A stretch of 64,000 nucleotides of DNA, taken from the sequence record PV730302.1; one strand, written 5' to 3'. Both the position numbers and the translations under genes were made by a program. Source of the DNA: a phage. Position 1 is the stretch's first letter; every line of letters begins with the position of its first letter. This document shows, piece by piece, positions 2,419-21,964 of this stretch. The notes under the pieces were generated by a model, which saw nothing but the letters and a program-made list of their open reading frames with translations, was not told where the DNA came from and did not search any database.

Positions 2419-2458
2419 TTGATAAGTCTATAGTATCATGTTCCTAGAGGATGTAAAC
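2419..2458 (-). promoter_or_regulatory. early promoter/stem-loop cassette (core TTGATAAGTCTATAGTATCA)
   Basis: minus sense GTTTAC-N17-TACTAT, SD GAGGAG, ATG at 2401. Confidence 0.6.
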
Positions 2459-2498
2459 ACCTAAACGAAAAAAGGTCCCACCGAAGTGAGACCTTTGA

Positions 2499-2882
2499 TT
2501 ATTCTAACGTCAGCAAATACTTAGTCTGGTAAAAGACGCCAGTGATATCGTCCAAAGTCGACTGGATGGCCTTGGGAAGGGTATCATAGATTTTATCAGA
2601 TGCTTTAAGAAGCTCGTCAAGGAAATCTACAGGGTCCTTAGGCAAGTCTGAAGCAGACGGTAATGATGCTTTATATTCTTTGCCACTGAATCCAAGATAT
2701 TGCTCACTAAATTGGTCCAATGGGCCTTGAACTTCTACATAATAGAAGTCATACGCTTTGTGTCTTGCATAGCTTTTGGTTTCTAAATGGGCTGACTTAA
2801 AATAGGCTAAAGAAACCAGTAGCCAACCAATATAAGAATCCACTTCAGACCCTCGACCGGGTACGAAATCATTGAACTTCAT
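2499..2882 (-). CDS. hypothetical protein
   Basis: ORF track 127 aa. Confidence 0.5.
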   Translation of the reverse strand: MKFNDFVPGRGSEVDSYIGWLLVSLAYFKSAHLETKSYARHKAYDFYYVEVQGPLDQFSEQYLGFSGKEYKASLPSASDLPKDPVDFLDELLKASDKIYDTLPKAIQSTLDDITGVFYQTKYLLTLE

Positions 2883-3162
2883 CTTCCACCTTCATTAGTT
2901 TTACATAACGCTCTCCGATGGCACGACCTTCAATTGAGCACGCTTCTATAGTCCGACAACTTGACATCTTCCAAGAAGCCGTAACATAGGCCCAATAGTC
3001 TTCAGAGGCCTTTACGCTGGGTCTACTCATTTGTGCATAAACAGGCATCGCACTACTAGCAAATGCATCCATCAATTTATCGTTGGTGTTATTTGCTAGT
3101 GAAACTGTAGGGCTTAAACATCCCGCCATAAGGATACAAGCCGCTGTACGGAAAATATCCAT
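2869..3162 (-). CDS. hypothetical protein, possible signal peptide or lipoprotein
   Basis: ORF track 97 aa; N-terminal hydrophobic stretch ending ...LMAGC. Confidence 0.4.
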   Translation of the reverse strand: MDIFRTAACILMAGCLSPTVSLANNTNDKLMDAFASSAMPVYAQMSRPSVKASEDYWAYVTASWKMSSCRTIEACSIEGRAIGERYVKLMKVEDEVQ

Positions 3163-3254
3163 ACAAAAGTCCTTTGTTGTTTTATACTATTTGCCTTTCG
3201 GCCTTAACCGATAGCGATTACCAAAAGCTAAAGCTCTACGGTTAGTATTATTAT

Positions 3255-3533
3255 TTATAGCTTTTTAAGCTTACGACAATAAGAATAGAACACGTCGTTA
3301 AAATTATGCTCAACCCAATTCCTCTGTATAGGCGAGGTAATGGAAAGCATATAATGAGCTTTAATTAAATCCATCCCATTTTTATTAGGACATTCTTTAT
3401 TATTAGCATTATACGTCGCTGCTACAACCTCTATCTCTCTTTTGTAAGCCACATCATCCATGATAGGCGAAAGAACAATATAAGAAATAGCCACAGCGAA
3501 CGCTAGAATTAAAATCTTTGAATTTAGGTCCAT
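3255..3533 (-). CDS. small membrane or secreted protein
   Basis: ORF track 92 aa; N-terminal hydrophobic helix. Confidence 0.45.
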   Translation of the reverse strand: MDLNSKILILAFAVAISYIVLSPIMDDVAYKREIEVVAATYNANNKECPNKNGMDLIKAHYMLSITSPIQRNWVEHNFNDVFYSYCRKLKKL

Positions 3534-3540
3534 AGTACCC

Positions 3541-4113
3541 TCAACTCGTTATTTCTATCCAGTGCTTCCTGCACAATGACACGTAAGAATCGTTGCCACC
3601 TATAGAAACTTGGGCTCCGTCCTTAATTGCAATACCATCTTGGATACGAGCCGTCATAGTAGCTTTACGGCCGCAATGGCACACACCTTTGTACTCAACG
3701 AGTTTATCTGCTGTAGCGAGTAATTCAGCAGAGCCAGGAAACAGTTTACCCTGAAAATCAGTTCTTAGCCCATAGCACATAACTGGAACATTATAATTGT
3801 CTACTATCTTTGCCAGTTGTTTTATCTGTGCAGGTTCTAAGAACTGTGCTTCATCCACAAATACACAGTGGATATCTTTTTGAGATTCAGCCCAACGATA
3901 GAACTCGTATAGGTCCATATCCGGAGTCACGGCATTAGCCTCTTGACTAATCCCTATACGAGACGAAATGCTATGGCTTGATTCTCTATTGTCTATCGCA
4001 GGCTTTAAAAGGAGTACGCCCATACCGCGTTCTTTGTAGTTATGAGCCGCTGTTAGCAATGAAGCGGTCTTCCCAGAATTCATCGCCGCATAGTGAAAAT
4101 AAAGTTGAGCCAT
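3541..4113 (-). CDS. tk: thymidine kinase
   Basis: 190 aa; P-loop MNSGKTASLL, C-terminal Cys cluster CHCGRKA...LCRKH; size matches T4 Tk. Confidence 0.9.
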   Translation of the reverse strand: MAQLYFHYAAMNSGKTASLLTAAHNYKERGMGVLLLKPAIDNRESSHSISSRIGISQEANAVTPDMDLYEFYRWAESQKDIHCVFVDEAQFLEPAQIKQLAKIVDNYNVPVMCYGLRTDFQGKLFPGSAELLATADKLVEYKGVCHCGRKATMTARIQDGIAIKDGAQVSIGGNDSYVSLCRKHWIEITS

Positions 4114-4122
4114 ATTACCTTC

Positions 4123-4329
4123 TTAAAGACTATTTACATAAGCAATTAATTCATTTTCTTTCTCATCAAATCGATTAGCAAATTCTTCCAGATGGTCGGC
4201 ATCTATAGGGCCATATTCATCATAAAAAGAATTTGCTTCTGCATGCTCATCTAGAAGTTCATGGATAAGCTCAAACAATTTATCTTTCTGCTCTTTACTC
4301 AGACTCATAACCATTGTACCTTTAAGCAA
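4123..4329 (-). CDS. hypothetical small acidic protein
   Basis: ORF track 68 aa. Confidence 0.35.
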   Translation of the reverse strand: MLKGTMVMSLSKEQKDKLFELIHELLDEHAEANSFYDEYGPIDADHLEEFANRFDEKENELIAYVNSL

Positions 4330-4517
4330 TATTCTTCAACATGCTGTTTGCGTTTATTTTTATCTATAAAAGTATATTCAACATATTCACCAATATACCA
4401 TTTATCGGTGTTATGTTGACTTTTTATAGGGCATTTAGTTACTCGGGTTTCGGACCAGTGTCGAATAATTTCCGCTTTATTTTTAGGGTCAAACGGATGC
4501 GGGTAATGGGCTTTCAT
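4305..4517 (-). CDS. hypothetical protein
   Basis: ORF track 70 aa. Confidence 0.4.
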   Translation of the reverse strand: MKAHYPHPFDPKNKAEIIRHWSETRVTKCPIKSQHNTDKWYIGEYVEYTFIDKNKRKQHVEEYCLKVQWL

Positions 4518-4956
4518 AATCTACCACCACTAAATTAATATCAGGAGTAAACAAATTAATCAATTGATAAACCTTGTCCCAATCACCACCAGCAATACCA
4601 CAACCGATGCGAGGGATATAAATTCTTGGTTTAAACAAAAGACCCTTTGCGGTACGGTTTAATTCTATCATACAGTTTACTAAAGCACCGTAATCAAGAT
4701 TAGGGCCCGGTTCGTATTGGGTGTATAAATTATAGCAAATTTGGCCCTTATTACCTGTGGCTTGAGTAAACGTGCCAAGTTTTTCCAAATGGCCTAAATA
4801 AGTGGTTTTATCGATAGCGAGAATAGGCGGATAAGCCTTAGCCAATTGCCCAGCTACACCTGAACCCATTGTATGGAAACAGTTACACCCGTGAGCAACA
4901 TTATTACCTTGAAGAAACAGGGCGACGATATCGCCCTTAATATAATCAATAATCAT
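4489..4956 (-). CDS. macro-domain-like protein (putative ADP-ribose binding or hydrolase)
   Basis: 155 aa; N-terminal GDI...GNNVAHGCNC...GSGVAGQL resembles the macro-domain GDI/NAAN/GGGV motifs (pattern recognition, not computed). Confidence 0.5.
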   Translation of the reverse strand: MIIDYIKGDIVALFLQGNNVAHGCNCFHTMGSGVAGQLAKAYPPILAIDKTTYLGHLEKLGTFTQATGNKGQICYNLYTQYEPGPNLDYGALVNCMIELNRTAKGLLFKPRIYIPRIGCGIAGGDWDKVYQLINLFTPDINLVVVDYESPLPASV

Positions 4957-5309
4957 TTAGAGTTTAGTCCTCGGTTGTAAGAGTCAACGAGTCTGTCTAC
5001 CATAGACGCGCACATTTCTTTGTACTTTTTATCAGATGGAATACATTCAGTAACGTTTAGACGTTGCTCGTATCTTTTAGAAAGAGTTTTCTCTTTCATT
5101 CGGCGATGCTCTACGTCATTCTGGCCATCTTTAAAAGCAGCTGTGATTTTTGAACTGAATTCGATAATGCATTCAGTATTACTCGGATGACAATAATCTT
5201 TTGCTGTACGGGTAGCATACTCGACAATTGAATTATTACTATCATAAACTTGTGACGCTAATACTCCCGGAGCAATCAACATAAGCGCTATAGTCATCTG
5301 CTTAATCAT
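4953..5309 (-). CDS. secreted hypothetical protein
   Basis: 118 aa; N-terminal signal-like MIKQMTIALMLIAPGVLAS. Confidence 0.5.
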   Translation of the reverse strand: MIKQMTIALMLIAPGVLASQVYDSNNSIVEYATRTAKDYCHPSNTECIIEFSSKITAAFKDGQNDVEHRRMKEKTLSKRYEQRLNVTECIPSDKKYKEMCASMVDRLVDSYNRGLNSK

Positions 5310-5849
5310 TTAATATACCGCCTCAAACATCTTTTTAGATTTTAGATAATTGGCCTTTTCTAGAACTTCAGAAGCATATTTACTGCCTACTTTGACGTTC
5401 CAGCCCGCATTATAAGAAGCAATCGCTTTTCTCAGGTCACCTTTGTGAACATCAATCCAATAAGACAGTTCAATGTAGGCCCAAGAGGCACTGTTCTGTC
5501 GTTTTTGGACCATACGGATTATTTCTTTATCAGACATCTTCCAACCTACCTGTTGAACACGACTTCTTAACGTAGGCAAGTAATTTTGGAACATGCCATA
5601 AGCATGGTGCTTATCTTTATTTAAACCCTGATTAATTCCGGCGGATGATTCCTGCCATAGTAATCCGGCCATGATATATCCTAATCCTTTTTGATTAGGG
5701 TTTTCTTTGAACTTTCCCGACTTTTGGTATTGTTCACCGAAAGCATACGCATAATGTAAATTATCGAGTTGTTCATTACTGAAAGTAGGCTCTACGCTAT
5801 GGGCAGACATACTAACTGTCAATAGTAAAGTGGCTAATACTTTTTTCAT
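5310..5849 (-). CDS. secreted lytic-transglycosylase-like (SLT domain) protein
   Basis: 179 aa; signal peptide MKKVLATLLLTVSMSAHS; motifs LLWQESS, GMFQ, SYNAGW resemble the SLT catalytic signature. Confidence 0.55.
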   Translation of the reverse strand: MKKVLATLLLTVSMSAHSVEPTFSNEQLDNLHYAYAFGEQYQKSGKFKENPNQKGLGYIMAGLLWQESSAGINQGLNKDKHHAYGMFQNYLPTLRSRVQQVGWKMSDKEIIRMVQKRQNSASWAYIELSYWIDVHKGDLRKAIASYNAGWNVKVGSKYASEVLEKANYLKSKKMFEAVY

Positions 5850-5861
5850 GAGACCTCATTA

Positions 5862-6320
5862 TTAAAGATAGATTACTTTCGTGCTGGTTTTACCTTCTAA
5901 ACGTTTAGAGTTAACAAATGCCATACGACATTTAAGGGAATATCCTTTATCAGGATGCTTACGGTCTACTGTCATACCCAACCATAAGGTTTTATCGGTA
6001 ATTTCTAGACGCAATGGGCGATACACTTTACCAGGGACAATTTCGGATTCTACATCAGGCAGAGGTTCCTGGATTAAAAATTCATGGATTTCTTTAACAT
6101 GGTTATGGAGTTGCTTGAATAAAGCAAAAACGTATTTTTCGTCGATTTCACGTTGGATAGCACGGTCCAACAAGTGATTAGAGTACTTAATAAAGAAGGC
6201 TGGGACTCCGCTCTTGATGGCGGCTTTTTTGATGGACGTATTCAGTTCACGGAATTCGGTTTCGAACTGACGACGTAATTTATTGCGGCGGATGAATACT
6301 TCTGAATTAATTTCTGACAT
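5862..6320 (-). CDS. regB: RegB site-specific endoribonuclease
   Basis: 152 aa; N-terminus ...EVFIRRNKLRR...HLLDRAIQREIDE matches remembered T4 RegB; early promoter cassette upstream. Confidence 0.85.
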   Translation of the reverse strand: MSEINSEVFIRRNKLRRQFETEFRELNTSIKKAAIKSGVPAFFIKYSNHLLDRAIQREIDEKYVFALFKQLHNHVKEIHEFLIQEPLPDVESEIVPGKVYRPLRLEITDKTLWLGMTVDRKHPDKGYSLKCRMAFVNSKRLEGKTSTKVIYL

Positions 6321-6338
6321 TTTGTAATCTCCTGTAGT

Positions 6339-6377
6339 TGATAGGTCTATAGTACCACGTCTACAGGAGATGTAAAC
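6339..6377 (-). promoter_or_regulatory. early promoter/stem-loop cassette upstream of regB
   Basis: minus sense GTTTAC-AT-CTCCTGTAG...TACTATAGACCTATCAA-CTACAGGAG-ATTACAAA-ATG. Confidence 0.7.
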
Positions 6378-6381
6378 TGCT

Positions 6382-6591
6382 TTATTCTTGGAATGGGGTA
6401 AGTTTTCCAGCAGCTGAACAAATTTCTACCAGTACAGGGTAAAACTCTTTCACTTGTTCAAGGCGTTGGGCTGCATACTGTACTTCACCTTCTTCGAGAC
6501 AAGCCATTTGGTCGTCAAGCAAGTATTTGTGGTAGCCAGTACAGGCTTCACCGATGATACGCTGGAAATCTTGTAAACTTTCAATTTTCAT
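6382..6591 (-). CDS. hypothetical protein
   Basis: ORF track (start moved to internal MKIESL giving an ATGA overlap with the upstream ORF). Confidence 0.45.
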   Translation of the reverse strand: MKIESLQDFQRIIGEACTGYHKYLLDDQMACLEEGEVQYAAQRLEQVKEFYPVLVEICSAAGKLTPFQE

Positions 6592-6869
6592 CAGTATTTT
6601 TCCTCGGGTTGGAAAACGGAACGACACGCCCACATGCTTGCTTCTTTCAGACGGTCAATTGCATTACGAATCTGGGTGATGCGTTCATGAGCCTGGTCTA
6701 GTTCTTGTTCAGAAACCTCTTCGGTATCTAAGTTCATATAATGAGTAACATGTTCTTCTTCCAGAGCTTTAAACATTAACCCAAGACGAACTTCAGCATC
6801 TTTGATAGCGTTTACTTTACCGATTTTATCGTCGGTATGCGGCTTATAACCCTTGATATCTTCAATCAT
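6591..6869 (-). CDS. hypothetical protein
   Basis: ORF track 92 aa. Confidence 0.45.
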   Translation of the reverse strand: MIEDIKGYKPHTDDKIGKVNAIKDAEVRLGLMFKALEEEHVTHYMNLDTEEVSEQELDQAHERITQIRNAIDRLKEASMWACRSVFQPEEKY

Positions 6870-7084
6870 TTCACTTCCTCGCCAGTTGCGATATCATATT
6901 CTACCAAACGAAGGCCTTCAGTCCAACCTTGCACGGAGATATAGGTAGTCGGGTAAATCATTTCTTTACCATTCCACCGACCGCCATCCCAGACTTCCAG
7001 AAAGTCTTGTTCACCTGGTCCATTAAGCCATTCAACAAATCTTTTCAGAGCTTCTTCAGAACCTTCAATTGTCAATTTAGACAT
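6866..7084 (-). CDS. hypothetical protein
   Basis: ORF track 72 aa. Confidence 0.4.
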   Translation of the reverse strand: MSKLTIEGSEEALKRFVEWLNGPGEQDFLEVWDGGRWNGKEMIYPTTYISVQGWTEGLRLVEYDIATGEEVK

Positions 7085-7373
7085 ATTTTTTCCAATCAGA
7101 AATCATATGAATCTCTTGGTCATAAGTCAAGAGACTACGAGCAATAATACCCTTACAAGGCCCTGAGATGAACTCGAGAGTGAAGTAAGGAACCTGTTTC
7201 ATTAATCGGATACTAGGAGCATGACATCTAAAACGAGAGCCCTTAAAGGGCCCTGTCATGAATACATATTCCAATGGGTAGAAATAAGCATATTCGAAAT
7301 TTGCAGTAAGGTCCTCTCTTCGAACCTTACGTGAGAAATAACAGAACTCAAAAAGTTCTTCATCAGTCATCAT
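7077..7373 (-). CDS. hypothetical protein
   Basis: ORF track (listed 7077-7421; internal start MMTDEEL avoids overlap). Confidence 0.45.
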   Translation of the reverse strand: MMTDEELFEFCYFSRKVRREDLTANFEYAYFYPLEYVFMTGPFKGSRFRCHAPSIRLMKQVPYFTLEFISGPCKGIIARSLLTYDQEIHMISDWKKYV

Positions 7374-7897
7374 TGCATTCCTATCACAAAGAACAGAGGC
7401 AAAGGCTTGTCGCCTTGGCACATAAATTTATTAATCATTACCTGGTAAGCTTCATAGAACTTATCCATCGCTGGAAGGCGCATTGGCTCTTCGATAATAA
7501 TCAATAATCGAGTAACAGATAGTCCACGATACTTATGGAAATTGTCTTCATCAAGGAAACTGCGCACAGTATCATAGACAACAAAACCAGGACCTTCGAC
7601 TTGGAGATGTGGGTGTGCCTTAGAAACCTGTTTTATTACATTACAAATTTCTCGCGAGCGATGCGAAGAACTCGACATAACAATCACATCATTACCCTTG
7701 GAAACCCAATCAGCGGCGAACTGAGCAAGGGCACTTGTTTTACCTGTTTGGCGTCCGCCATCAAGTCGAAGAGTACCAAACTCTTGCATTCTTGAAGCAG
7801 GTTCATACCATGTGTATTGGTCTGAGTCTAAACGTTCAATGGCGCGTTCAGCGAAGGCGTGCATTAAGGTTAGATAAATGGGAGTTAAAAATTTCAT
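7370..7897 (-). CDS. P-loop NTPase-like protein
   Basis: 175 aa; Walker A GRQTGKTS. Confidence 0.5.
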   Translation of the reverse strand: MKFLTPIYLTLMHAFAERAIERLDSDQYTWYEPASRMQEFGTLRLDGGRQTGKTSALAQFAADWVSKGNDVIVMSSSSHRSREICNVIKQVSKAHPHLQVEGPGFVVYDTVRSFLDEDNFHKYRGLSVTRLLIIIEEPMRLPAMDKFYEAYQVMINKFMCQGDKPLPLFFVIGMQ

Positions 7898-7932
7898 AGT
7901 AGTCTCTTAGTGGTGGGGCCATTCCTTGGCAC

Positions 7933-7961
7933 ATAATTCGTCCATGTATCCGTATGTAAAC
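7933..7961 (-). promoter_or_regulatory. possible early promoter (GTTTAC -35, weak -10) without the conserved cassette core
   Basis: minus-strand GTTTAC-N17-AATTAT upstream of ORF 7370-7897. Confidence 0.3.
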
Positions 7962-8057
7962 CCTTTACCGCACTTGGGCTCGACCTTATTACAGGTAGGG
8001 AAAGGTCCATCACTCAGAGGACGCGACGTTCATGAGGAGAGGGCCGGCTTGCCTTTA

Positions 8058-8357
8058 TTAGAAAGAACCAGAACCTCTAATTGTGTTCTGGCGACCTTTA
8101 TTTTCTAATTCATAGTCGTCGATTTCGTAGGCTTGTGCTACACCAAAAGCCTTTTTAACTTTAGCTAAAGAGCCTTTAGACGTAACAATATTAAAAGTAT
8201 TACCTTTGGTAAAATCAACCAAATCCACTTGTACACCCTGTTTACCGAGGCTTGCTACAATAGCATCAACATATTCCTGGTCTAAATTGCCTTGAACTCC
8301 AATTTGAAATACTTTAGGAGCTTTGGCTTCTGTAATAAATTCTTGGTAAGTTTTCAT
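8058..8357 (-). CDS. internal-protein-like (capsid targeting sequence MKTYQEFITE)
   Basis: 99 aa; N-terminal 10 residues match the T4 IP capsid targeting sequence with an I-x-E cleavage motif; paralog of 21257-21565. Confidence 0.7.
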   Translation of the reverse strand: MKTYQEFITEAKAPKVFQIGVQGNLDQEYVDAIVASLGKQGVQVDLVDFTKGNTFNIVTSKGSLAKVKKAFGVAQAYEIDDYELENKGRQNTIRGSGSF

Positions 8358-8399
8358 ATTATTCCTTAAGTTGGTAGAAGTATTCTATCACGGATTTAA

Positions 8400-8816
8400 T
8401 TAAGCGTAAATCGCCTTACCATAATGTTTGTACCAGGTAGGGCGTTGTGCAATTTTTTCGTCCAAACGGGCTTGTGAAATGGCGATAGAAGCTTCGTGAG
8501 GAACATAATCATCACGGAATTCCTGAGGAATGTCACTAATGTCCTGGACAGTAGTATCCTTGATATTAAAACCACGTTTTAAACATTCGGCTATAAGCTC
8601 AATTTGTCGCTTACGTAAAAATTCAAGCTTATCGTAAAAGAATGTAACATGGCCTGTGCCAAGGATAAAAGTAGGACTGATTTTGAAATCACGGACACGT
8701 TTACCATTAGCAACATGCTTACGAACTGCACCGAAAACACGTGGTAATTCACGATATTCAGCCATTAAGTGTTGGTCAGCCAATTCAGATACTAAGGTAA
8801 GGTTGATACGAGTCAT
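8400..8816 (-). CDS. denV: endonuclease V, pyrimidine-dimer DNA glycosylase
   Basis: 138 aa; [31 protein letters not shown]... essentially identical to remembered T4 EndoV. Confidence 0.95.
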
Positions 8817-8832
8817 TTTTAATCTCCTGTAG

Positions 8833-8872
8833 TTGATAGGTCTATAGTATCATGACTACAGGAGATGTAAAC
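8833..8872 (-). promoter_or_regulatory. early promoter/stem-loop cassette upstream of denV
   Basis: same architecture; inverted repeat CTCCTGTAG/CTACAGGAG brackets the -10. Confidence 0.7.
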
Positions 8873-8896
8873 AACTTTTATCAAGTATCGGCTTTA

Positions 8897-9493: not shown

Positions 9494-9540
9494 ACGGGTT
9501 CCTTAAAGGTAAATATTTTAATTGGTCTGTTCAAGTAACT

Positions 9541-9575
9541 GTAGATATACTATCACAATTCTAGGAGATGTAAAC
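9541..9575 (-). promoter_or_regulatory. early promoter, degenerate cassette variant
   Basis: GTTTAC at 9570-9575 (minus sense); core GTAGATATACTATCA. Confidence 0.45.
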
Positions 9576-14991: not shown

Positions 14992-15001
14992 TTTTATTTC
15001 C

Positions 15002-15214: not shown

Positions 15215-15223
15215 TTTATTTCC

Positions 15224-15505
15224 TTAACATTCAGAAGAAGAGGACACCCAACCACCATTTTCTAGGCTGGTAGTGTAATCATGTTGGTTTACAATAGCGT
15301 ACTGAGCTTCACCGTATTCTTCCCAGTGGGCAAGGTCGGCTTTCAAGGCGCCAGGAGAATAATAGTCACCGCCCATACCGCGAGCAGGGTATATATTAAA
15401 ATGAGTCTCATATTTGTTTGCAATTTCCTCGGCACGACGAATAGCTTTATGGATATCATTTACTGCTTCAGCCAATTCTTTATTTTTATGGTAATCATTC
15501 ATCAT
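15224..15505 (-). CDS. C-terminal-Cys family small protein, member 2 (ends GWVSSSSEC)
   Basis: ORF track 93 aa; paralog. Confidence 0.55.
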   Translation of the reverse strand: MMNDYHKNKELAEAVNDIHKAIRRAEEIANKYETHFNIYPARGMGGDYYSPGALKADLAHWEEYGEAQYAIVNQHDYTTSLENGGWVSSSSEC

Positions 15506-15514
15506 AGCGTTTCC

Positions 15515-15805
15515 TTAGCACATTGCCGAAGAGGAGATCCAAGCACCAACTGTAACGACGCCATTTTCAACTTCACCACCGTTGTTTTCAATTTCATCTT
15601 TAAACCACTGGGAGCATTCATAACCGACAGGATAATATGTACGGCCTGAACCATAATCACCGGTACCGAATTGGATACCATACTTATCGGCAATAGCTTC
15701 ACATTCATGTTCGATGGTATTCACTTTATTCAGAAGAGCATAGATAGCCTTTTCTGCAGATTTCTCGTCATTGTGTTCCGGGATTTCAATTTCAATTTTA
15801 TTCAT
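15515..15805 (-). CDS. C-terminal-Cys family small protein, member 1 (ends AWISSSAMC)
   Basis: ORF track 96 aa; paralog. Confidence 0.55.
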   Translation of the reverse strand: MNKIEIEIPEHNDEKSAEKAIYALLNKVNTIEHECEAIADKYGIQFGTGDYGSGRTYYPVGYECSQWFKDEIENNGGEVENGVVTVGAWISSSAMC

Positions 15806-16155
15806 GATTTACATTCCTTAATAAAGGTTTCAAGGTCATTACGTTTAGTTTGTTTTACATACTCATTATAATTAGCCATAGCTAAAGCATATCTCTTTTT
15901 ACGTGGCTTGTTTATTTTATTAGTTTGGGCAATATCAAAGACCCATGGGATAAAAAATCCTATTAAAGCCGGAACCCAAATCCATGCAAGGCTCATATCT
16001 TCAAACGGATGGCGAGGCATACCATTAATAATCCCACCGACAAGAAATCCAATTATCCCTGCAGTCATACTAGTAGCAATGCCGAGGAATAAGGAAATAG
16101 CTATATCATAATCTGCTAATGCGTAACCAGGGTCGGTTTTACTAGGCTTATGCAT
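15802..16155 (-). CDS. membrane protein with C-terminal ...ETFIKECKS motif
   Basis: start set at MHKPSK (SD AAGAGG upstream); TM helices; C-terminus paralogous to 11161-11748. Confidence 0.5.
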   Translation of the reverse strand: MHKPSKTDPGYALADYDIAISLFLGIATSMTAGIIGFLVGGIINGMPRHPFEDMSLAWIWVPALIGFFIPWVFDIAQTNKINKPRKKRYALAMANYNEYVKQTKRNDLETFIKECKS

Positions 16156-16684
16156 TTTGAACCTCTTTAGCGTATTCGCGACATTCAGCAATAAAACGAT
16201 TAAGCTTACGTTGTTGTTTACGACTTTCTAATGTGTACTCATTAGCCAAAATAATAAGCTCATCTTTATCGTAATTTTTAATATCAGAGTAAGATGGGCG
16301 ACGGTCAACCATTCCAAATACATCACCATTTTCTAAAGCTACATAACATACTAAATGGTAATCATCGTCTGCCATATTAAGAAGCACACAATCAGCGCTC
16401 TCGTTTAAAGAATATACCGAATAACGTAGTCCAGCGAATTCCACTCGTTGAATAGCCAGATTTACGTCAATAATTTCCAAAGCATCTTCAAAAGAAAGGT
16501 CTTCAGCTAAAGCAAAAATAAAAGGTAATTTGGTAGTATCGCCACGGCTAGATGTTCTGCTTAAGAAATCGTTTGAATAGCCTAGGTCTTGGCGAATTCT
16601 ATAAAGAACTGAATTAGTTTCATGTGAAAGACCACTATGCTTAAACCAATCAATATTTGATATCAGGTCGTCATATAAACTCAT
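16148..16684 (-). CDS. hypothetical protein with C-terminal ...LNRFIAECREY motif
   Basis: ORF track 178 aa. Confidence 0.5.
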   Translation of the reverse strand: MSLYDDLISNIDWFKHSGLSHETNSVLYRIRQDLGYSNDFLSRTSSRGDTTKLPFIFALAEDLSFEDALEIIDVNLAIQRVEFAGLRYSVYSLNESADCVLLNMADDDYHLVCYVALENGDVFGMVDRRPSYSDIKNYDKDELIILANEYTLESRKQQRKLNRFIAECREYAKEVQNA

Positions 16685-16707
16685 AATATTCTCCTCTCCT
16701 CCAAATA

Positions 16708-16725
16708 GGGAGACCGAAGTCTCCC
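16708..16725 (-). terminator. UUCG-tetraloop hairpin GGGAGAC-UUCG-GUCUCCC
   Basis: perfect 7-bp stem just downstream of ORF 16733-17326; identical hairpin follows gene 23 on the plus strand. Confidence 0.5.
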
Positions 16726-16732
16726 AGTAACA

Positions 16733-17326
16733 TTACTTAAGTGAATTAATGTAGTCTTCGATATCAGCAGAAGTCGTATCCATTCCAACTTGTGGGCCTT
16801 TAAACGTTTCTACACGAAGCAGGGTGTCTTCAATATCAATCTTAGTCAATGCAGCGATTTCAACAACATCATCGGCAGTAGCAATACCCAGGGCAGCCAT
16901 ATTACGAGTTTCACGAATGTACTCAAGCTTAACCGCTAGTTCCTGGCGAGAGTCATCAAGTTCCTTGACCTTAAGCTTAATTTCATTACGCATTTCAACA
17001 TAATCATCGGCTTTCTTACGAAGTTGAGTAGCCGTACGACGATAAAGGAGGCCGAGTTTAGCATGTACCTGGACATCGGCACCTTCTTTAATCAGTTTAC
17101 GAATTTCGCGTTCTTTGGAACTAGCCAGTTGGTCCTTTTCGTTAGCGAGTTCACGAATACGTTTTTCTTCATTCACAGACTTAACATGGGCAGTCTGGAG
17201 CTCAGTGATTTTATCAATCAGAGTAGAAGCAGCTTTGGTGTATTGGTCTTCGATTGACAGGTTCTGAGCCATTGCAGTACCCAATTTGGAACGGATGAAT
17301 TCAACGATTTTCTTTAAAGTGTTCAT
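16733..17326 (-). CDS. coiled-coil protein (possibly PspA/IM30-like)
   Basis: 197 aa; heptad-rich charged sequence throughout. Confidence 0.5.
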
Positions 17327-17350
17327 AGTATTTCCTTCAGTTGGTTAAGA

Positions 17351-17399
17351 TTTATAATCCATGAGGACATTATACCCTGTCCTCTGAGGGTTGTAAACA
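17351..17399 (-). promoter_or_regulatory. early promoter (GTTTAC -35, TATAAT -10) with flanking inverted repeat GAGGAC/GTCCTC
   Basis: read on minus strand; upstream of ORF 16733-17326. Confidence 0.6.
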
Positions 17400-17402
17400 T
17401 TT

Positions 17403-17801
17403 TTATTTCATTTTTGCGAGGCAAATTTCATTGGCTTCCCATTGAGCTTGCTTAATAATAGCTTTGGATACAGGAGCCCTTTGGCCATAAGTTTTTGACG
17501 TTGAGAGAACAATACATTTGTTTGCTTCATTATGCCAGCCCCATGATTTTTCGCCATGGGTACCTTTAATTACAGCAGACACCTCAACAGAGCAACCACC
17601 ATCAGAAATCTTGGTTTCGACAATCCATTCATTTCTCTCAGCAGCTTCAAGTTCTAATCTAGTTTTTTCTTCATACATCGCGGCCCAATCAGTTTTTGCC
17701 AAGTTGAAAGCAAGGGCTTTCTCTAATTCTTTGGCATATTTTTGTTGTTCAGGTGTTAATGAATTATACAACTCTTGCATTTCTTTATCTTCGATATTCA
17801 T
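17403..17801 (-). CDS. hypothetical protein
   Basis: ORF track 132 aa. Confidence 0.5.
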   Translation of the reverse strand: MNIEDKEMQELYNSLTPEQQKYAKELEKALAFNLAKTDWAAMYEEKTRLELEAAERNEWIVETKISDGGCSVEVSAVIKGTHGEKSWGWHNEANKCIVLSTSKTYGQRAPVSKAIIKQAQWEANEICLAKMK

Positions 17802-17820
17802 TATGTTCTCCTCAAATTAT

Positions 17821-17856
17821 GGGCTCATAATATCTTAATCATGAGCCCGTGTAAAC
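17821..17856 (-). promoter_or_regulatory. early promoter variant with inverted repeat GGGCTCAT/ATGAGCCC
   Basis: GTTTAC at 17851-17856 (minus sense); SD GAGGAG then ATG of ORF 17403-17801. Confidence 0.5.
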
Positions 17857-17859
17857 ATT

Positions 17860-18123
17860 TTATTTCATATTATTGAAATAATCTTCCGCATCAAAATCGT
17901 TATCATGGTAAACTTTGGTAGACGATTTGGCGTAGCCTTCAGCTGAGAACATATTAATCACAACTTTAATTGTATACCACTGTCCATCTTCATTACCCAT
18001 TACTGCATAGGTTTCATACACTGGGTGTTCAGGACCGATAACTTTAATATCGTTAACTGTAGCACCAAATTCTTCCGGAACACATTTCATAAAGAAATTA
18101 AACACTTCACCATAATTATCCAT
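17860..18123 (-). CDS. hypothetical protein
   Basis: start set at MDNYGEV (SD AAGGAG); promoter cassette upstream. Confidence 0.5.
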   Translation of the reverse strand: MDNYGEVFNFFMKCVPEEFGATVNDIKVIGPEHPVYETYAVMGNEDGQWYTIKVVINMFSAEGYAKSSTKVYHDNDFDAEDYFNNMK

Positions 18124-18147
18124 TTTACTCTCCTTCACACTGTTGTT

Positions 18148-18188
18148 TTGATAGGTCTATAGTATCATGTTCTACGAAAGAGTAAACA
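18148..18188 (-). promoter_or_regulatory. early promoter/stem-loop cassette (core TTGATAGGTCTATAGTATCA on plus strand)
   Basis: minus sense GTTTAC-N17-TACTAT with TGn extended -10. Confidence 0.65.
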
Positions 18189-18217
18189 TCTTTTTTAAAC
18201 TTTTTAGAAACAAAAAA

Positions 18218-18239
18218 GGCCCAACCTTTCGGAAGGGCC
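18218..18239 (-). terminator. intrinsic terminator hairpin GGCCC-UU-CC-GAAA-GG-UU-GGGCC plus U-run (minus sense)
   Basis: follows stop of ORF 18245-18820; A-run on plus strand 18212-18217. Confidence 0.6.
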
Positions 18240-18244
18240 TAGAA

Positions 18245-18820
18245 TCAGTTCTTGTAGAACCGGAACGGGTTTACATGGAAGGCTAACATGGCCTTAGGGA
18301 TTTTACGAGACAAAAGGCTCTTAAGCTTCCAACCACAGTACACGCGAAGGTAAAAGGTAATCCCACCAACCTTAAGATATGGAACTGAAGCAAATACACC
18401 CCAGGCGTCGTCATTCCACATCCATAACCACCCGTGATGAGCTTTATCAGGAGAACCGGATTCAACGTCAGGATTACCACGATAATGGAATTCTGAGCTA
18501 CAATCACGACCGAGTTTATGGTAAGCAAAGTTATAAGCTTTATTTCGCCATAGCCAAGCTACTCTCTGGAGATAAACACCACCTGGCATTTTCCTGATTT
18601 TAGCCCAACGTTTAATGTGACCTTTGTCACCGTCAATTGGATTATCGTATGTCATCATCCAATCAAAGCCATAAGGCAATTTACCGGTCTTTTTATTGTG
18701 GAAAGGAACTACAAAAGGCGCAAGGATAACAGCCAGAACCATAGAGATAAAATCCAGTGGAACCAACAGAACCCAACTCAAATATTTTAAAAGTTTCATA
18801 TATTTCTCTAATTTAACCAA
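18245..18820 (-). CDS. membrane protein (hypothetical)
   Basis: 191 aa; N-terminal TM helices; Trp-rich C-terminal domain. Confidence 0.55.
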   Translation of the reverse strand: MVKLEKYMKLLKYLSWVLLVPLDFISMVLAVILAPFVVPFHNKKTGKLPYGFDWMMTYDNPIDGDKGHIKRWAKIRKMPGGVYLQRVAWLWRNKAYNFAYHKLGRDCSSEFHYRGNPDVESGSPDKAHHGWLWMWNDDAWGVFASVPYLKVGGITFYLRVYCGWKLKSLLSRKIPKAMLAFHVNPFRFYKN

Positions 18821-18821
18821 A

Positions 18822-18841
18822 AAAGCCCCAGATGGGGCTTT
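18822..18841 (-). terminator. intrinsic terminator AAAGCCCC-AUCU-GGGGCUUUUUU (minus sense)
   Basis: hairpin plus U-run directly after stop of ORF 18844-19308. Confidence 0.65.
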
Positions 18842-18843
18842 CG

Positions 18844-19308
18844 TTATTTGATTTGTTTAGCAGACCAGATACGGTCTTTGATGATTTTCTGAATATCTTC
18901 AACATACTCTAAGTCGTGAGCATGCGGATTATCTTTGAAGCTATGTGCTCGTGCTAGTTTCTGGCCTTCTGTTTTGATTACTAAAAGCTCTTTAAGAATT
19001 GCTTCATACTTAGAAATAATTCCTTTGGCGATATTTTTTTCTTGAGCGGCTTTAGGGTCTGCTTTTGTAGCAGGTGCTTTACCTGTAGCTTTCTGGAACA
19101 ATTCACCTGATGCAGCTAGGCTTTTAAAAACTCGGCTAACAGTATTAGCATTAGTAAAACCTTCGGCTTTAAAATCTCTAATAAAACGGAAACGTTCTTC
19201 ATCAGAGGCGTCTTTGTAAGAATATTTACCTGCTTGAATTGCTGCAATCGCAGCGGCTTTTACATCTGAACTAGATTGTTCAGTCAAAAATTCATTGTAA
19301 GTTTTCAT
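18844..19308 (-). CDS. internal-protein-like (CTS MKTYNEFLTE)
   Basis: 154 aa; N-terminal CTS-like decapeptide. Confidence 0.65.
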   Translation of the reverse strand: MKTYNEFLTEQSSSDVKAAAIAAIQAGKYSYKDASDEERFRFIRDFKAEGFTNANTVSRVFKSLAASGELFQKATGKAPATKADPKAAQEKNIAKGIISKYEAILKELLVIKTEGQKLARAHSFKDNPHAHDLEYVEDIQKIIKDRIWSAKQIK

Positions 19309-19353
19309 TATTATTTCCTAAGTTAATTAACTTATCTATTTATTATGCCAAAA

Positions 19354-19377
19354 AGCCCCAACCTTTCGGAAGGGGCT
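19354..19377 (-). terminator. intrinsic terminator hairpin, compensatory variant of the 18218 hairpin
   Basis: AGCCCC-AA-CC-TTTC-GG-AA-GGGGCT on plus strand with A-run upstream (U-run in minus sense); closes the tRNA region. Confidence 0.55.
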
Positions 19378-19758
19378 ATGCCTTGCGGCAACCTTGTCGG
19401 GGTTCCACCTGCTAGGCAAGTGTTTGTACGAAACGCCGGGATTCGAACCCGGTTATTAAGTAGTTGACGCTACTCAATATTTTTAAAAGGCCATATCTCG
19501 ACCATATCCGAACGTTCCGTCAAAAACGCTACTCGGCTTACGGCAAAGATATTTCCTCGAATCGATAATTCGGTGCGCCGTTTCTGCTGTGATGTAAGGG
19601 GACGTTAACAGATCGTAAAGATTTGTTAATGTCAGTCCTTATTCAGGGAACATCAGTCCGACGACTTACCGGTAGCGACCCGGTTTCTTGTTTGGTGCGC
19701 CGGTGAATGCTGGTAATCAGTCTTCATACGACGGCTTGACTATATAATAGTCTTCATT

Positions 19759-19833
19759 TGGTATCCCGCCCTGGGATCGAACCAGGACCGCAAACTTAGA
19801 AGGATCGTATGCTATCCATTACACCAGCGGGAC
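19759..19833 (-). tRNA. tRNA-Arg (anticodon TCT), CCA encoded
   Basis: manual fold of minus strand: 7-bp acceptor stem, T-loop TTCGATC, anticodon loop CTTCTAA. Confidence 0.85.
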
Positions 19834-19838
19834 ATAGT

Positions 19839-19915
19839 TGGTGACCCGGACCAGATTTGAACTGGTAACCTTTCCCTTATGAGGGGACTGCTTCTAACCA
19901 TTGAGCTACAGGGCC
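19839..19915 (-). tRNA. tRNA with CAT anticodon (elongator Met or lysidine-type Ile), CCA encoded
   Basis: manual fold: acceptor GGCCCTG, T-arm ACCAG-TTCAAAT-CTGGT, anticodon loop CTCATAA; 5 nt from tRNA-Arg. Confidence 0.8.
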
Positions 19916-19920
19916 TTAAT

Positions 19921-20187
19921 TTAAATTACAAATCCAGCAGGAGCATTATCATCTTTAGCCATGTGCTGAATTGTATGATAAGTCATTTCTTCAGGAGCAA
20001 CCAGATAAGCCGCAACGTTAACTAGTGGAATTATTTTTGGTTTAGCGAACGTGCTATCAGAAATTGCCATAAAGGGCTCGCCGTCTCGTTCAACTTCGCC
20101 AAATTGGCATTCATATGAAATAGAACAACGTTTGGTAGTTGTTGTCTTGGTTTTAGGGTCATAAAAAGCTAATTTTAATACTAACAT
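19921..20187 (-). CDS. hypothetical protein
   Basis: ORF track 88 aa. Confidence 0.4.
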   Translation of the reverse strand: MLVLKLAFYDPKTKTTTTKRCSISYECQFGEVERDGEPFMAISDSTFAKPKIIPLVNVAAYLVAPEEMTYHTIQHMAKDDNAPAGFVI

Positions 20188-20315
20188 AACACCTCAAATA
20201 AAATTAAGTAAAGTAAGTTTAATTAATAGACCTTGTCTATTATGAAAGGTTCTTTGAGGGAAGAACCTTTGGTAATAGAGGGTATTAATGATAGAGTAAT
20301 AATATCACATAATTC

Positions 20316-20600
20316 TTAAAGCATATTAATGTAATCAAGTTTAATAGAAGCAATCTTCAAAGGATTTTTAAAGATGTCGTATTCGACCAATCCGTTTTCA
20401 GTTGCGGTATAAAAAGTAAAGTTAACAGAATTATAACGTTGGCTGTTAACTTTGAGTTTAACGTCGCTTGAACTACGGCCAATATTAACCTGTTGGACAT
20501 CAAGCACGGCATCTTTGCCAAAGTTGCGAATCAGTAGCTCTGCTGCAACCTGGTCTGAATTATATCCATTCTCTGGATTAGTAACCTTAACGTATAGCAT
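20316..20600 (-). CDS. hypothetical protein
   Basis: ORF track 94 aa. Confidence 0.45.
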   Translation of the reverse strand: MLYVKVTNPENGYNSDQVAAELLIRNFGKDAVLDVQQVNIGRSSSDVKLKVNSQRYNSVNFTFYTATENGLVEYDIFKNPLKIASIKLDYINML

Positions 20601-21002
20601 TTAACCCTCGTCTACAATAGTATGGGTATTAGCATTAACAATCTGCCACCAGTCAAAACGATCGGAGCCGTAAAGAAACTTATTCTCGTTTTCTTTAACA
20701 ATTTCACGTAGTTCATCTTCAGTGGCAGCTTTAGCGATTAAATCGGTATAGCCACCACGTGGATAGTAGTTATCACCCGCGAACAGAAGGAAATTTACTT
20801 TACCAGAAGGAACATATGCTTCCTTAGGATACTTGTTTCCTGCTTGGTCTACCACTTCAATATAACGGTAAGGAATATCGGTACTTTCAACCCATTGCCA
20901 AGCTGCAGCAGGGGATTCAAAAGCATCTACACCTAAACGGTTATCTTCATCTTTAGACGGATTATTTTCATAATCCGCATATGCATAATATTCAACGTTC
21001 AT
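20601..21002 (-). CDS. hypothetical protein
   Basis: ORF track 133 aa. Confidence 0.5.
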   Translation of the reverse strand: MNVEYYAYADYENNPSKDEDNRLGVDAFESPAAAWQWVESTDIPYRYIEVVDQAGNKYPKEAYVPSGKVNFLLFAGDNYYPRGGYTDLIAKAATEDELREIVKENENKFLYGSDRFDWWQIVNANTHTIVDEG

Positions 21003-21187
21003 TATTCACCTTTAGAGATTTTATCCATAACGATAGCGATTAAGCCGATTAGAAATGCTACTACCAATGAGATAGAATTTTCTGTTGTTGTCAGTAGTCC
21101 ACAAATGAATCCTACAAACATCGAAAAACTAAAAGCCATTGAAGCAATTACTACAGCAACATTACGAATCAGTTCAGCGCGTTTCAT
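21002..21187 (-). CDS. small membrane protein
   Basis: 61 aa, one to two TM helices; promoter cassette upstream. Confidence 0.4.
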   Translation of the reverse strand: MKRAELIRNVAVVIASMAFSFSMFVGFICGLLTTTENSISLVVAFLIGLIAIVMDKISKGE

Positions 21188-21204
21188 TTTATTCTCCTCA
21201 GTAG

Positions 21205-21244
21205 TTGATAGGGTAATAGTATCACTACCCTATCTAAAAGTAAA
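21205..21244 (-). promoter_or_regulatory. early promoter/stem-loop cassette (variant core TTGATAGGGTAATAGTATCA)
   Basis: GTTTAC at 21239-21244 in minus sense. Confidence 0.55.
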
Positions 21245-21256
21245 CGGTTTTATAAA

Positions 21257-21565
21257 CTATTTTATTCCGCGTGATGCAATCGTATTCTGCCGTTTAACGC
21301 CAGTTTGTTTAAAGTTATGATTGTCGAGTTGATCGGTACGAGCAACTCCGAATGATGATTTAATCTTAGCTTTAGATCCTTTAGTTATAGAAATAAACAT
21401 CTCGGGAGCCCCTTTCTTAAAGTCCGAAGCAATTACTTCAACACCGTTCTTAGCAAGTGACCTCAGAATTGCTTCCACATACTCATCATCAAGACCCGCT
21501 TGAGTATGAATAACGAATGTCTTTGGTGCAGCCGCTTCATTGATAAATTCTTTATAGGTTTTCAT
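21257..21565 (-). CDS. internal-protein-like (CTS MKTYKEFINE), ipI-like position next to 57B
   Basis: 102 aa; CTS; paralog of 8058-8357 with shared motifs along the whole length. Confidence 0.7.
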   Translation of the reverse strand: MKTYKEFINEAAAPKTFVIHTQAGLDDEYVEAILRSLAKNGVEVIASDFKKGAPEMFISITKGSKAKIKSSFGVARTDQLDNHNFKQTGVKRQNTIASRGIK

Positions 21566-21584
21566 TTTATGTTCCTAATTAATT

Positions 21585-21625
21585 TTGATGAGATAATAGT
21601 ACCACAACCCTATTTAAAAGTAAAC
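21585..21625 (-). promoter_or_regulatory. early promoter/stem-loop cassette (variant)
   Basis: GTTTAC at 21620-21625 in minus sense. Confidence 0.5.
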
Positions 21626-21898
21626 TCATTTTAAATAAATTGCATACTTTTTATAACCGGCCGTTTCGTGACGCAGCCCTTTTTCATTAGCAAAACGTTC
21701 AATATTGTTAATTTGATTCTGGTCGAGTTCTGAAGTATCAAATACAAAAAAGTTTCGCTTATTGCCTAAAGTTACGTGATTAGTCAAATCGATGTTATAG
21801 AGATGATTTATATCATCAATCATAGTCTTAACAGATTTGTTAATTTTTACTTCCTCATTAAGAATAGATTCAGCGATAAATTCTTGATAAGTTTTCAT
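21626..21898 (-). CDS. internal-protein-like (CTS MKTYQEFIAE)
   Basis: 90 aa; exact match to the canonical CTS decapeptide. Confidence 0.65.
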   Translation of the reverse strand: MKTYQEFIAESILNEEVKINKSVKTMIDDINHLYNIDLTNHVTLGNKRNFFVFDTSELDQNQINNIERFANEKGLRHETAGYKKYAIYLK

Positions 21899-21924
21899 TT
21901 TGATTTCCGTGCGGTTAGTTTGTT

Positions 21925-21964
21925 TTGATAGGTCTATAGTATCATGCCTATAGACCTTGTAAAC
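21925..21964 (-). promoter_or_regulatory. early promoter/stem-loop cassette (core TTGATAGGTCTATAGTATCA)
   Basis: GTTTAC at 21959-21964 in minus sense; inverted repeat GGTCTATAGG/CCTATAGACC. Confidence 0.65.

Follow-up and report, generated by a model that had tools for sequence, protein, structure and literature searches.

Early Promoter Cassettes and the Genes They Precede

The window studied here, a 64,000-nucleotide stretch of phage DNA (sequence record PV730302.1), carries many copies of a short promoter cassette, and we describe the anatomy of these copies, the RNA hairpins embedded in some of them, and the predicted hiding of the Shine-Dalgarno (SD) sequence by such hairpins in front of regB and denV. 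Positions 2000-22000 of the window are 91-96% identical to JS98-like coliphages of the genus Dhakavirus (MX01, UGJNEcP3, C6, IME08, JS98, and JS10). According to the annotation of relatives, it is the T4 early region that lies on the minus strand of this part, with mobD, rI, tk, vs, regB, vs.x, denV, ipIII, e, nudE, e.x, tRNA, trna.x, internal proteins, and 57B.

The original prediction had noticed a near-identical 20-mer and had read it as the core of a cassette, present in at least 10 copies, that would gate translation by transcript origin throughout the family. A search for this 20-mer (TTGATAGGTCTATAGTATCA) at up to three mismatches returned eight matches (2419, 6338, 8833, 12691, 18148, 21205, 21925, and 55837), with 0.02 expected. 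The reported positions are thereby confirmed, except for one that is off by one (6338, not 6339); the variants reported at 9541 and 21585 are too divergent for the 20-mer search but belong to the same promoter type by their -35/-10 pattern. A generic sigma-70 scan performed at chance level (56 sites versus 54.6 expected), and a T4-specific -35/-10 pattern was used instead. It yielded 13 clear and two weaker copies, so that the predicted minimum of 10 is exceeded; the additional copies with a different core are located at 17398, 17856, and 58623, and the weaker ones at 14199 and 8411. All 13 clear copies are on the minus strand and are named here by the first base of their -35, which is the higher coordinate of each range. 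Each cassette was folded from its -35 to the ATG and tested singly, and the resulting z-scores and spacer-shuffle p values are given with the features of the window (ORF, open reading frame):

2399-2458, minus strand: cassette before a 78-aa ORF; -35 at 2458, ATG at 2401; weak bulged pairing between spacer and SD, z -0.22
2471-2496: intrinsic terminator just upstream of cassette 2458
6318-6377, minus strand: regB early promoter cassette; p 0.001, z -3.84; conserved in seven Dhakavirus genomes
8355-8411, minus strand: weaker promoter (ATTTAC, 17 nt, TGaTAGAAT) before the internal head protein gene just downstream of denV
8814-8872, minus strand: denV early promoter cassette; z -6.18; over 50 nt, 96% identity with the T4 denV promoter
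9491-9575, minus strand: promoter before an ipIII-like internal protein gene; no significant hairpin, z +0.94
10453-10492, minus strand: late promoter TATAAATA of gene e inside an SD-sequestering hairpin, ATACCTCC/GGAGGTAT; z -4.29; positive control within the window
12662-12730, minus strand: promoter (GTGTAC) before a 70-aa ORF; p 0.004, z -2.78; SD free
14140-14199, minus strand: weaker promoter (ATGTAC ... TGtTACTAT) before a 79-aa ORF
17324-17398, minus strand: e.6 early promoter; 7-bp hairpin, shuffle p 0.016, whole-region z -0.83
17799-17856, minus strand: early promoter of a 132-aa ORF; p 0.001, z -5.84
18121-18187, minus strand: e.8 early promoter with the 20-mer core; no significant hairpin, z -0.44
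about 18211-18240: intrinsic terminator upstream of the e.8 promoter
21185-21245, minus strand: trna.4 early promoter; p 0.002, z -3.38; SD free
21563-21625, minus strand: promoter of an Ip7-like internal protein gene; chimera with a broken hairpin, z +0.49
21896-21964, minus strand: promoter of an Ip9-like internal protein gene; p 0.001, z -4.89; SD free
55816-55877, minus strand: cassette with the 20-mer core; no hairpin, z -0.75
58562-58623, minus strand: promoter (TGtTAAGAT) before a 24.3-like ORF and RNA ligase 2; no hairpin, z -0.05; upstream terminator detected

Read on the minus strand, the layout is the one proposed: a -35 element GTTTAC (12 of the 13 copies; GTGTAC at 12730), a spacer of 17 or 18 nt ending in TGn (present in 11 of the 13), a -10 element, the SD, and the ATG. 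The -10 reads TACTAT, with TAGTAT, TATAAT, TATTAT, or TAAGAT in some copies. The 30 nt upstream of the promoters are 53-87% A+T (UP region), and after the -10 the start region AGACCT followed by ATCAA is conserved. Each copy is found 18-47 nt in front of the ATG of a minus-strand ORF orthologous to a T4 early gene (regB, denV, ipIII, e.6, e.8, and trna.4). Since every copy is intergenic from -35 to ATG, with the upstream stop codon 0-57 nt before the -35, coding-sequence conservation was ruled out as the source of the repeats. The denV copy matches T4 65364-65413, directly before T4 denV, where primer extension stops attest to an active promoter (PMC1702504). The core of the cassette is likewise found in front of motA in a T4-like phage; stretches that resemble the cassette number 11-15 per Dhakavirus genome, 4-5 in Mosigvirus, and one in T4. 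The early-promoter reading is upheld by the motif count, the shared layout, and the identity to the T4 denV promoter: judged by their sequence, the repeats are early promoters that depend on sigma-70, in a T4-type phage of the JS98-like group; elements of this kind are known.

With the T4 early promoters (PMC2988021; PMC1524935) these cassettes share the -35 GTTTAC, the 17-nt spacer, the TGn extended -10, A-rich upstream sequence, and sites before orthologous genes. They differ by a homogenised -6 to -1 stretch of their own: at the orthologous e.8, nrdC.8, and nrdC.10 promoters, the hexamer that follows the -10 is AGACCT in Dhakavirus versus ACAACT in T4. Paralogous promoters within a genome are thus more alike than orthologues across genera, which points to concerted evolution.

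Hairpins Embedded in the Promoter Spacers

Significant hairpins are formed by six copies (6377, 8872, 12730, 17856, 21245, and 21964; z -2.8 to -6.2), and the hairpin at 17398 is significant in the spacer-shuffle test only (p 0.016). Fold and shuffle tests revealed no significant hairpin at 2458, 9575, 18187, 21625, 55877, and 58623. An early promoter and a stable stem-loop are hence joined in one element in six to seven of the 13 copies, the other six lacking the stem-loop. Seven of the 11 spacers tested are more complementary to the downstream sequence than shuffled spacers (p<=0.016). The 5' arm lies inside the promoter spacer in every hairpin of the window, and the partner arm varies. One consensus structure for all copies was rejected, as neither the pairing register nor the partner of the arms is constant. 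An Rfam scan found zero families overlapping the cassettes and two tRNAs only. Spacer-borne hairpins are absent from the published descriptions of the T4 early-promoter consensus that we consulted (PMC2988021; PMC1524935).

Two types can be told apart by their partner arm. Type A, found at regB (6377) and denV (8872), is a perfect 11-bp helix, ATCTCCTGTAG/CTACAGGAGAT, in which the partner is the SD-containing arm (helix energies of -18.3 kcal/mol for regB and -20.7 kcal/mol for denV). In the regB cassette, the 5' arm ATCTCCTGTAG (6361-6371) in the spacer is followed by the -10 (6349-6354), the predicted +1 (6342), the 3' arm CTACAGGAGAT with the SD (6327-6337), and the ATG (6320). The corresponding positions for denV are 8856-8866 (5' arm, in the spacer), 8844-8849 (-10), 8837 (predicted +1), 8822-8832 (3' arm with the SD), and 8816 (ATG).

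In type B (12730, 17398, 17856, 21245, and 21964), the spacer pairs with the segment from the -10 end to -1, and the SD stays free. The hairpin AGGTCTATAG/CTATAGACCT flanks the -10 both at 12730 (12714-12723 with 12696-12705) and at the Ip9-like promoter (21948-21957 with 21930-21939). At e.6, GAGGACA (17378-17384) and TGTCCTC (17363-17369) surround the -10 TATAAT. The promoter of the 132-aa ORF has an 11-bp hairpin around its -10 (17838-17848 with 17821-17831; core GGGCTCAT/ATGAGCCC), and that of trna.4 a 12-bp hairpin flanking the -10 (21223-21234 with 21207-21218; core GATAGGGTA/TACCCTATC). The claim that the SD-containing arm pairs with the spacer in every copy therefore stands for regB and denV, with a weak bulged form at 2458 (spacer-shuffle p 0.05), and fails for the type B and the hairpin-free copies. 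Of the 14-bp hairpin known at T4 ipII, the ipIII-like promoter (9575) has kept only a remnant of the 5' arm, CTCCTAGAATTGTGA.

No U-run follows any hairpin of the window, and classical termination by these hairpins is unlikely for this reason. The type B hairpin most likely marks or stabilises the 3' side of the upstream RNA, or attenuates that RNA.

For a wider survey, we pooled the cassettes of the window, of six Dhakavirus regions, of T4, and of loci found by pattern scan in viral contigs, altogether 147 distinct cassettes in 62 families. Type A accounts for eight families and type B for 18, and the other 36 belong to neither; under the shuffle null about 0.6 of each type are expected.

Predicted Hiding of the Shine-Dalgarno Sequence at regB and denV

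The free energy needed for exposing the ribosome-binding site (-13 to +3) was modelled for a read-through RNA starting 100 nt upstream of the ATG and a self-initiated RNA starting at the predicted +1. The modelled opening energy of the regB site is 12.2 kcal/mol in the read-through versus 4.5 kcal/mol in the self-initiated RNA, and that of denV is 20.7 versus 3.3 kcal/mol. Gene e, whose hairpin in the window is the classic T4 form of the late-promoter hairpin (late promoter at 10485), served as the control and gave 14.2 versus 4.5 kcal/mol, a contrast of like size to those of regB and denV; the gene e hairpin is a proven case of SD hiding in long T4 transcripts (PMC3014915). Only at regB and denV does the SD lie inside a stable helix in long transcripts; the other 11 copies fail in this respect. 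The 5' arm of type A is located upstream of any possible start, the predicted +1 being 5 nt before the 3' arm, and because the 5' arm precedes the predicted start, the hairpin is possible in read-through RNA only and not in self-initiated RNA. The promoter embedded at regB and denV is of the early sigma-70 type and not of the late (gp55) type; minus-strand TATAAATA sites below 24 kb occur at 10485 (gene e) and 3259 only.

Read-through and self-initiated opening energies are equal for most of the other copies. The 132-aa ORF differs by 7.5 kcal/mol and e.8 by 5.2 kcal/mol, both for causes other than a significant spacer hairpin. The difference at the 132-aa ORF comes from a long-range pairing in the modelled read-through RNA (17801-17960, minus strand), between its SD and e.8 coding sequence about 97 nt upstream (TATGTTCTC/GAGAACATA); this pairing could be due to chance, or could be a second, long-range occlusion. 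Folding with and without the 5' arm thus agrees with gating by transcript origin at regB and denV and not for the rest of the 13 or more copies. Gating is wrong as a family-wide rule, and for regB and denV it is well supported by comparison.

Occlusion Among denV and regB Homologues

Homologues of denV and regB were fetched from viral contigs without regard to structure, and their upstream regions were then read. A T4-type promoter is present in 30 of the 36 distinct denV upstream regions, and 28 of these 30 promoters differ by >=5 kcal/mol between read-through and self-initiated RNA (median 11.6). Among them are no fewer than 12 different arm sequences and two architectures, in both of which the 5' arm is upstream of the predicted start. 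In one, the 5' arm is in the spacer (TTCCTCCAAG/CTTGGAGGAA, CTCCGTTTG/CAAACGGAG, and TTCTCCTGTAGATG/CATCTACAGGAGAA); in the other, it extends from the -10 end to about +1 (TAGTGTTCTC/GAGAACACTA in MX01, IME08, and C6, and GTCCTCC/GGAGGAC). In MX01, IME08, and C6, the denV promoter has been swapped for an unrelated early promoter; since its anti-SD arm GTGTTCTC sits at the -10 end and in the start region, the SD is still hidden in the read-through RNA.

The background of 61 families with the same promoter type is bimodal: 11 families differ by 5-13 kcal/mol, among them three regB groups and denV, and 50 are near zero. A difference of >=5 kcal/mol is found at 28 of the 30 denV promoters versus seven of the 57 other families (Fisher p 5e-14). 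Strong occlusion of the regB SD, with different arms each time, was detected in T4 (TTTTCCTCTTGACTG/CAGTTAAGAGGAGAA), Mosigvirus (TTCTCCTCTAGTT/AACTAGAGGAGAA), Dhakavirus, and one further lineage (perfect 15 bp). The nrdC.8 promoter of T4 is of type A as well (GTTCCTCTG/CGGAGGAAC). In T4 itself, the SD is hidden in read-through RNA at regB, denV, and nrdC.8; the T4 promoters of ipI, ipII (14 bp), trna.4, and mobD.2 are of type B. As far as it can be read from sequence, the comparison among phages strongly supports gating at regB and denV.

Terminators and Read-Through Transcription

An intrinsic terminator is located within 80 nt upstream in none of the 26 hairpin families versus 13 of the 36 families without a hairpin (p 3e-4). 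The window copies with an upstream intrinsic terminator (2458, 18187, and 58623) are all without a significant hairpin. Since embedded hairpins and upstream terminators never occur together in the families, they look like alternative ways to handle incoming RNA. In four viral contigs (345-378 kb), we observed sigma-70-consensus promoters (TTGAC ... TATAAT) upstream of denV; in these jumbo-phage promoters, a true intrinsic terminator hairpin with a T-run overlaps the -35 and the spacer (e.g., GGGTTGACTTCGGTCAGCCCTTTTT).

The only minus-strand late promoter near the denV block is that of gene e, at 10485 in the window and at 67018 and 67031 in T4. Late RNA from the gene e promoter would run through e, ipIII, denV, and the internal protein gene that follows. 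The internal proteins belong to the phage head, and their genes in this block are without a late promoter of their own.

Cassettes as Crossover Points

The original prediction also viewed the cassettes as points at which small ORFs are shuffled, and this is borne out by breakpoints and chimeras relative to six relatives. In the alignment of bases 1-24000 with these genomes, 12 of 40 breakpoint clusters fall within 25 nt of a cassette, zones that make up 5.6% of the sequence; the enrichment has a p of 1e-6 against uniform placement and is marginal (p 0.04) under a null that limits breakpoints to gene junctions. The genomes differ by a 209-nt ORF whose border coincides exactly with the upstream edge of the regB cassette (6383/6593), and by Ip7, which some have and others lack between 21224 and 21620. 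Insertions of ipII or orf114 flank the denV cassette on one side or the other (8819, 8872/8883), and at 9576 an ORF has been lost. In JS10, a crossover that joined two cassettes in their SD regions (17812/18117) has removed e.8.

The Ip7 cassette is a chimera of a trna.4-type spacer and a T4 ipI-type -10 and leader; since spacer and leader come from different parent types, the hairpin arms are mismatched and the hairpin is therefore broken. Another chimera, in JS98 (at about 6504), pairs AGGTCTATAG with CTATAGCCCT, arms from different parents. Both appear to have arisen by crossing over in the -10/loop. The cassettes have 40-60 nt in common, and these would serve as crossover points at which small ORFs are added, deleted, or swapped. 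Three small-ORF stretches of the window (1464-1648, 6384-6593, and 13718-13881) are missing from several close relatives. In MX01 (about 22484, minus strand), the orthologue of the Ip9 promoter has a hairpin grown to a perfect 17 bp that includes the -35 (GTTTACAAGGTCTATAG/CTATAGACCTTGTAAAC); the extension arose via a multi-base change from ATCAAAAC to TGTAAAC, a signature expected of templated quasi-palindrome mutation.

Likeness to Known Elements of T4-Type Phages

The cassette itself has already been described. With the promoter-early stem-loops (PeSLs) of RB49/phi1, T4/PST, and KVP40/nt-1 (PMC2839356; PMC4122927), it shares the combination of early promoter, stem-loop, SD, and ATG between small variable ORFs, a stem-loop that often lies between the -35 and -10 or over the -10, and the borders of indels and replacements, with crossovers inside the element. 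The ending is of the PeSL type too, with the SD and start codon belonging to the downstream ORF and the upstream stop in the AT-rich part. The PeSL authors regard the T-even elements as PeSL-like analogues with weaker, AT-rich stems and not as homologues (PMC2839356); PeSL-like elements at T-even internal-protein loci go back to Repoila 1994, as cited in PMC2839356. The match to PeSLs that had been proposed thus holds in the sense of a PeSL-like promoter and shuffling element, the authors' own term, with a significant stem-loop in only six to seven of the 13 copies. The PeSLs of RB49/phi1 are sigma-70-consensus elements with polyG/polyC stems, and excision as encapsidated mini-circles is a further trait of PeSLs (PMC2839356). 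For T4/PST, the PeSL papers draw the stem-loop just upstream of the promoter, whereas here the upstream stem-loops are ordinary terminators and the promoter-embedded hairpins form a separate, mutually exclusive class. The stem-loop is treated there as a terminator and recombination site; translation is left undiscussed in these papers, and the words 'translation' and 'ribosome' are absent from the 2010 one (PMC2839356).

Sequestration of the SD in long transcripts and its release by a late promoter are known from T4 e, soc, 49, and I-TevI (PMC3014915). In common with regB and denV, a helix covers the SD in the long RNA, and a promoter between or inside the arms gives rise to a translated short RNA without the 5' arm. 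The promoter of e, soc, 49, and I-TevI is of the late (gp55) type and expression is delayed, whereas regB and denV have an early sigma-70 promoter whose spacer is the 5' arm; the predicted effect is an expression limited to the earliest minutes, unlike that of e, soc, 49, and I-TevI. An early promoter that gates translation would seem to be a new form of this mechanism. Early-promoter cases are missing from the list in the 2010 review of post-transcriptional control in T4, where denV goes unmentioned (PMC3014915), the main text of a T4 omics paper holds zero denV data (PMC9697503), and in the literature we found no description of early promoters embedded in SD-sequestering hairpins, although older mentions are possible.

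The T4 regB gene has a typical early promoter, the nuclease RegB cuts its own SD, and its synthesis is tightly limited (PMC3014915). The regB SD of the window is likewise GGAG, within the 3' arm. The hairpin would add a second layer to this autoregulation (PMC3014915), in that read-through regB RNA would be neither translated nor cut. For denV, Durand et al. found the GGAG resistant to RegB in vivo and attributed this to sequence 3' of GGAG (PMC1702504).

Interpretation and Alternatives

The explanation that we favor, and hold to be probable, is that the repeats are early promoters, about half of which carry a hairpin that forms in read-through RNA, that this hairpin hides the SD at regB and denV, and that the cassettes act as crossover points. 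It is built on observed features: promoter anatomy, T4 homology, hairpin significance, gene-specific conservation with differing arms, breakpoints, and chimeras. The promoter takes up the whole gap between early genes, so that its spacer would be the only free sequence for intergenic RNA structure, and in about half of the copies the spacer would have evolved to pair with downstream sequence. In type A, read-through RNA would be closed to ribosomes, and probably also to RegB cleavage at GGAG, whereas self-initiated RNA would be open; synthesis of RegB and DenV would be limited to the few minutes in which their own early promoters fire. This would be the principle of gene e, soc, 49, and I-TevI, with an early promoter replacing the late one. 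The denV hairpin would allow internal proteins, but not DenV, to be made late from gene e read-through RNA, and the regB hairpin would stop RegB synthesis from any read-through RNA. Type B hairpins are unable to gate translation since the SD stays free; they would do the job of the intrinsic terminators found before other copies.

A broader form of this proposal, a T-even rule that includes T4, seems to us evenly balanced between right and wrong. The spacer would serve as the anti-SD arm for denV, regB, nrdC.8, 55.6, and a few ORFs; only self-initiated RNA would be translated or cut by RegB, and the gene would be silent on long early, middle, and late read-through RNAs. If true, the rule would account for the early-only expression of denV, which lies behind the late promoter of gene e and among internal-protein genes that lack one and are presumably translated late from the gene e read-through RNA. 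Hairpins within promoters and terminators in front of them would then be two alternative kinds of insulator in a genome without spare intergenic space. If confirmed, the gating seen by comparison at regB and denV would provide an 'early-only' counterpart to the 'late-only' hairpins of T4 e, soc, 49, and I-TevI and a reason for the early stop of RegB and DenV synthesis despite the location of their genes within long transcripts. It would also show how the promoter spacer, usually regarded as free sequence, can carry a second function where intergenic slack is lacking. The interest of the data is in the comparative result: the site remains paired though the arms change, in 28 of 30 denV variants and, for regB, in T4 and at least three other lineages.

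Several points weigh against the favored explanation. The +1 start sites are predicted only, about 7 nt after the -10, and the block to translation itself is modelled. A ribosome that ends at a nearby upstream stop codon could open the hairpin, and the stop upstream of regB is about 11 nt before the 5' arm. In Karamvirus and one other lineage, the regB SD pairs weakly around a type B stem, and one regB lineage has a type B stem only; with two weak lineages and one of type B, SD occlusion is not obligatory for regB. Pair counts over 16 type A cassettes (81.8% of cells paired versus 45-54% with the partner slid, and 20 cells changed on both sides versus 2-10) are inflated since the 16 sequences were picked for pairing, and for this reason we gave them less weight than the unselected denV and regB surveys. 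The role of the type B hairpin is our inference, with classical termination an unlikely one, and the marginal breakpoint enrichment under the gene-junction null weakens the shuffling part.

Hiding of the SD by all copies in read-through RNA, with the whole family gating by transcript origin, as the original prediction had it, is very improbable. The regB and denV cassettes fit it exactly, and 2458 offers a weak bulged version (p 0.05), but in 11 of the 13 copies the opening energy is independent of the copy's own spacer arm, the SD is left free by five of the hairpins, a significant hairpin is missing from six copies, and the difference is near zero in 50 of 61 families; as a general rule it is refuted by the folding and shuffle tests. 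That the hairpins instead terminate or attenuate upstream RNA, as proposed for the RB49/phi1 PeSLs, with SD occlusion being incidental, is unlikely, though it has more in its favor: the stem-loop of PeSL211/210 lowered lacZ expression as a strong terminator would (PMC2839356), no family here has both a hairpin and an upstream intrinsic terminator, and the hairpin embedded in the jumbo-phage denV promoters is a true terminator with a T-run. Yet the window hairpins lack a U-run, the 23-nt loop of type A is unlike that of an intrinsic terminator, and the position of the SD in the stem at 28 of 30 denV promoters, in two architectures, would be left unexplained.

We regard as improbable, more so than termination or attenuation, the view that the inverted repeats are by-products or tools of DNA transactions (quasi-palindrome mutation, recombination, or cruciform signals) with no RNA function. 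The multi-base change that brought the MX01 Ip9 hairpin to 17 bp, the chimeric cassettes with mismatched arms (JS98 6504 and the Ip7 cassette of the window), the breakpoints within cassettes, and the RB49 mini-circle crossovers mapped inside the stem-loop (PMC2839356) are all in keeping with it; the gene-specific SD occlusion, kept across genera with changed arms, and the second denV architecture, which hides the SD without using the spacer, are not. A cruciform as the common explanation was rejected, since type A arms are 23 nt apart and thus poor for extrusion. The inverted repeats might be suspected of being operators at which a dimeric DNA-binding protein shuts off early promoters, given the overlap of the palindromes with the -10 and the incompletely understood shut-off of T4 early promoters (PMC3014915). 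The arm sequences are, however, wholly different between promoters (>15 designs), with 4 to 23 nt between the arms, and one protein would be unable to recognise all of them; on account of these differing arms we rejected the operator reading, which is scarcely credible.

Further Features of the Window

Cassette 55877 (minus strand) would drive an ORF of about 88 aa that lies between gene 23 (major capsid) and gene 24 but on the opposite strand, and stands back-to-back with the late promoter TATAAATA of gene 24 at 55884 (plus strand). Some relatives have a segD homing endonuclease gene between genes 23 and 24. Two tRNA genes lie on the minus strand of the window at 19762-19833 and 19842-19915, where relatives have two or three (Arg, Asn, Met). 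A MotA-box middle-type promoter is located at about 20326, upstream of the tRNA pair (19762-19915).

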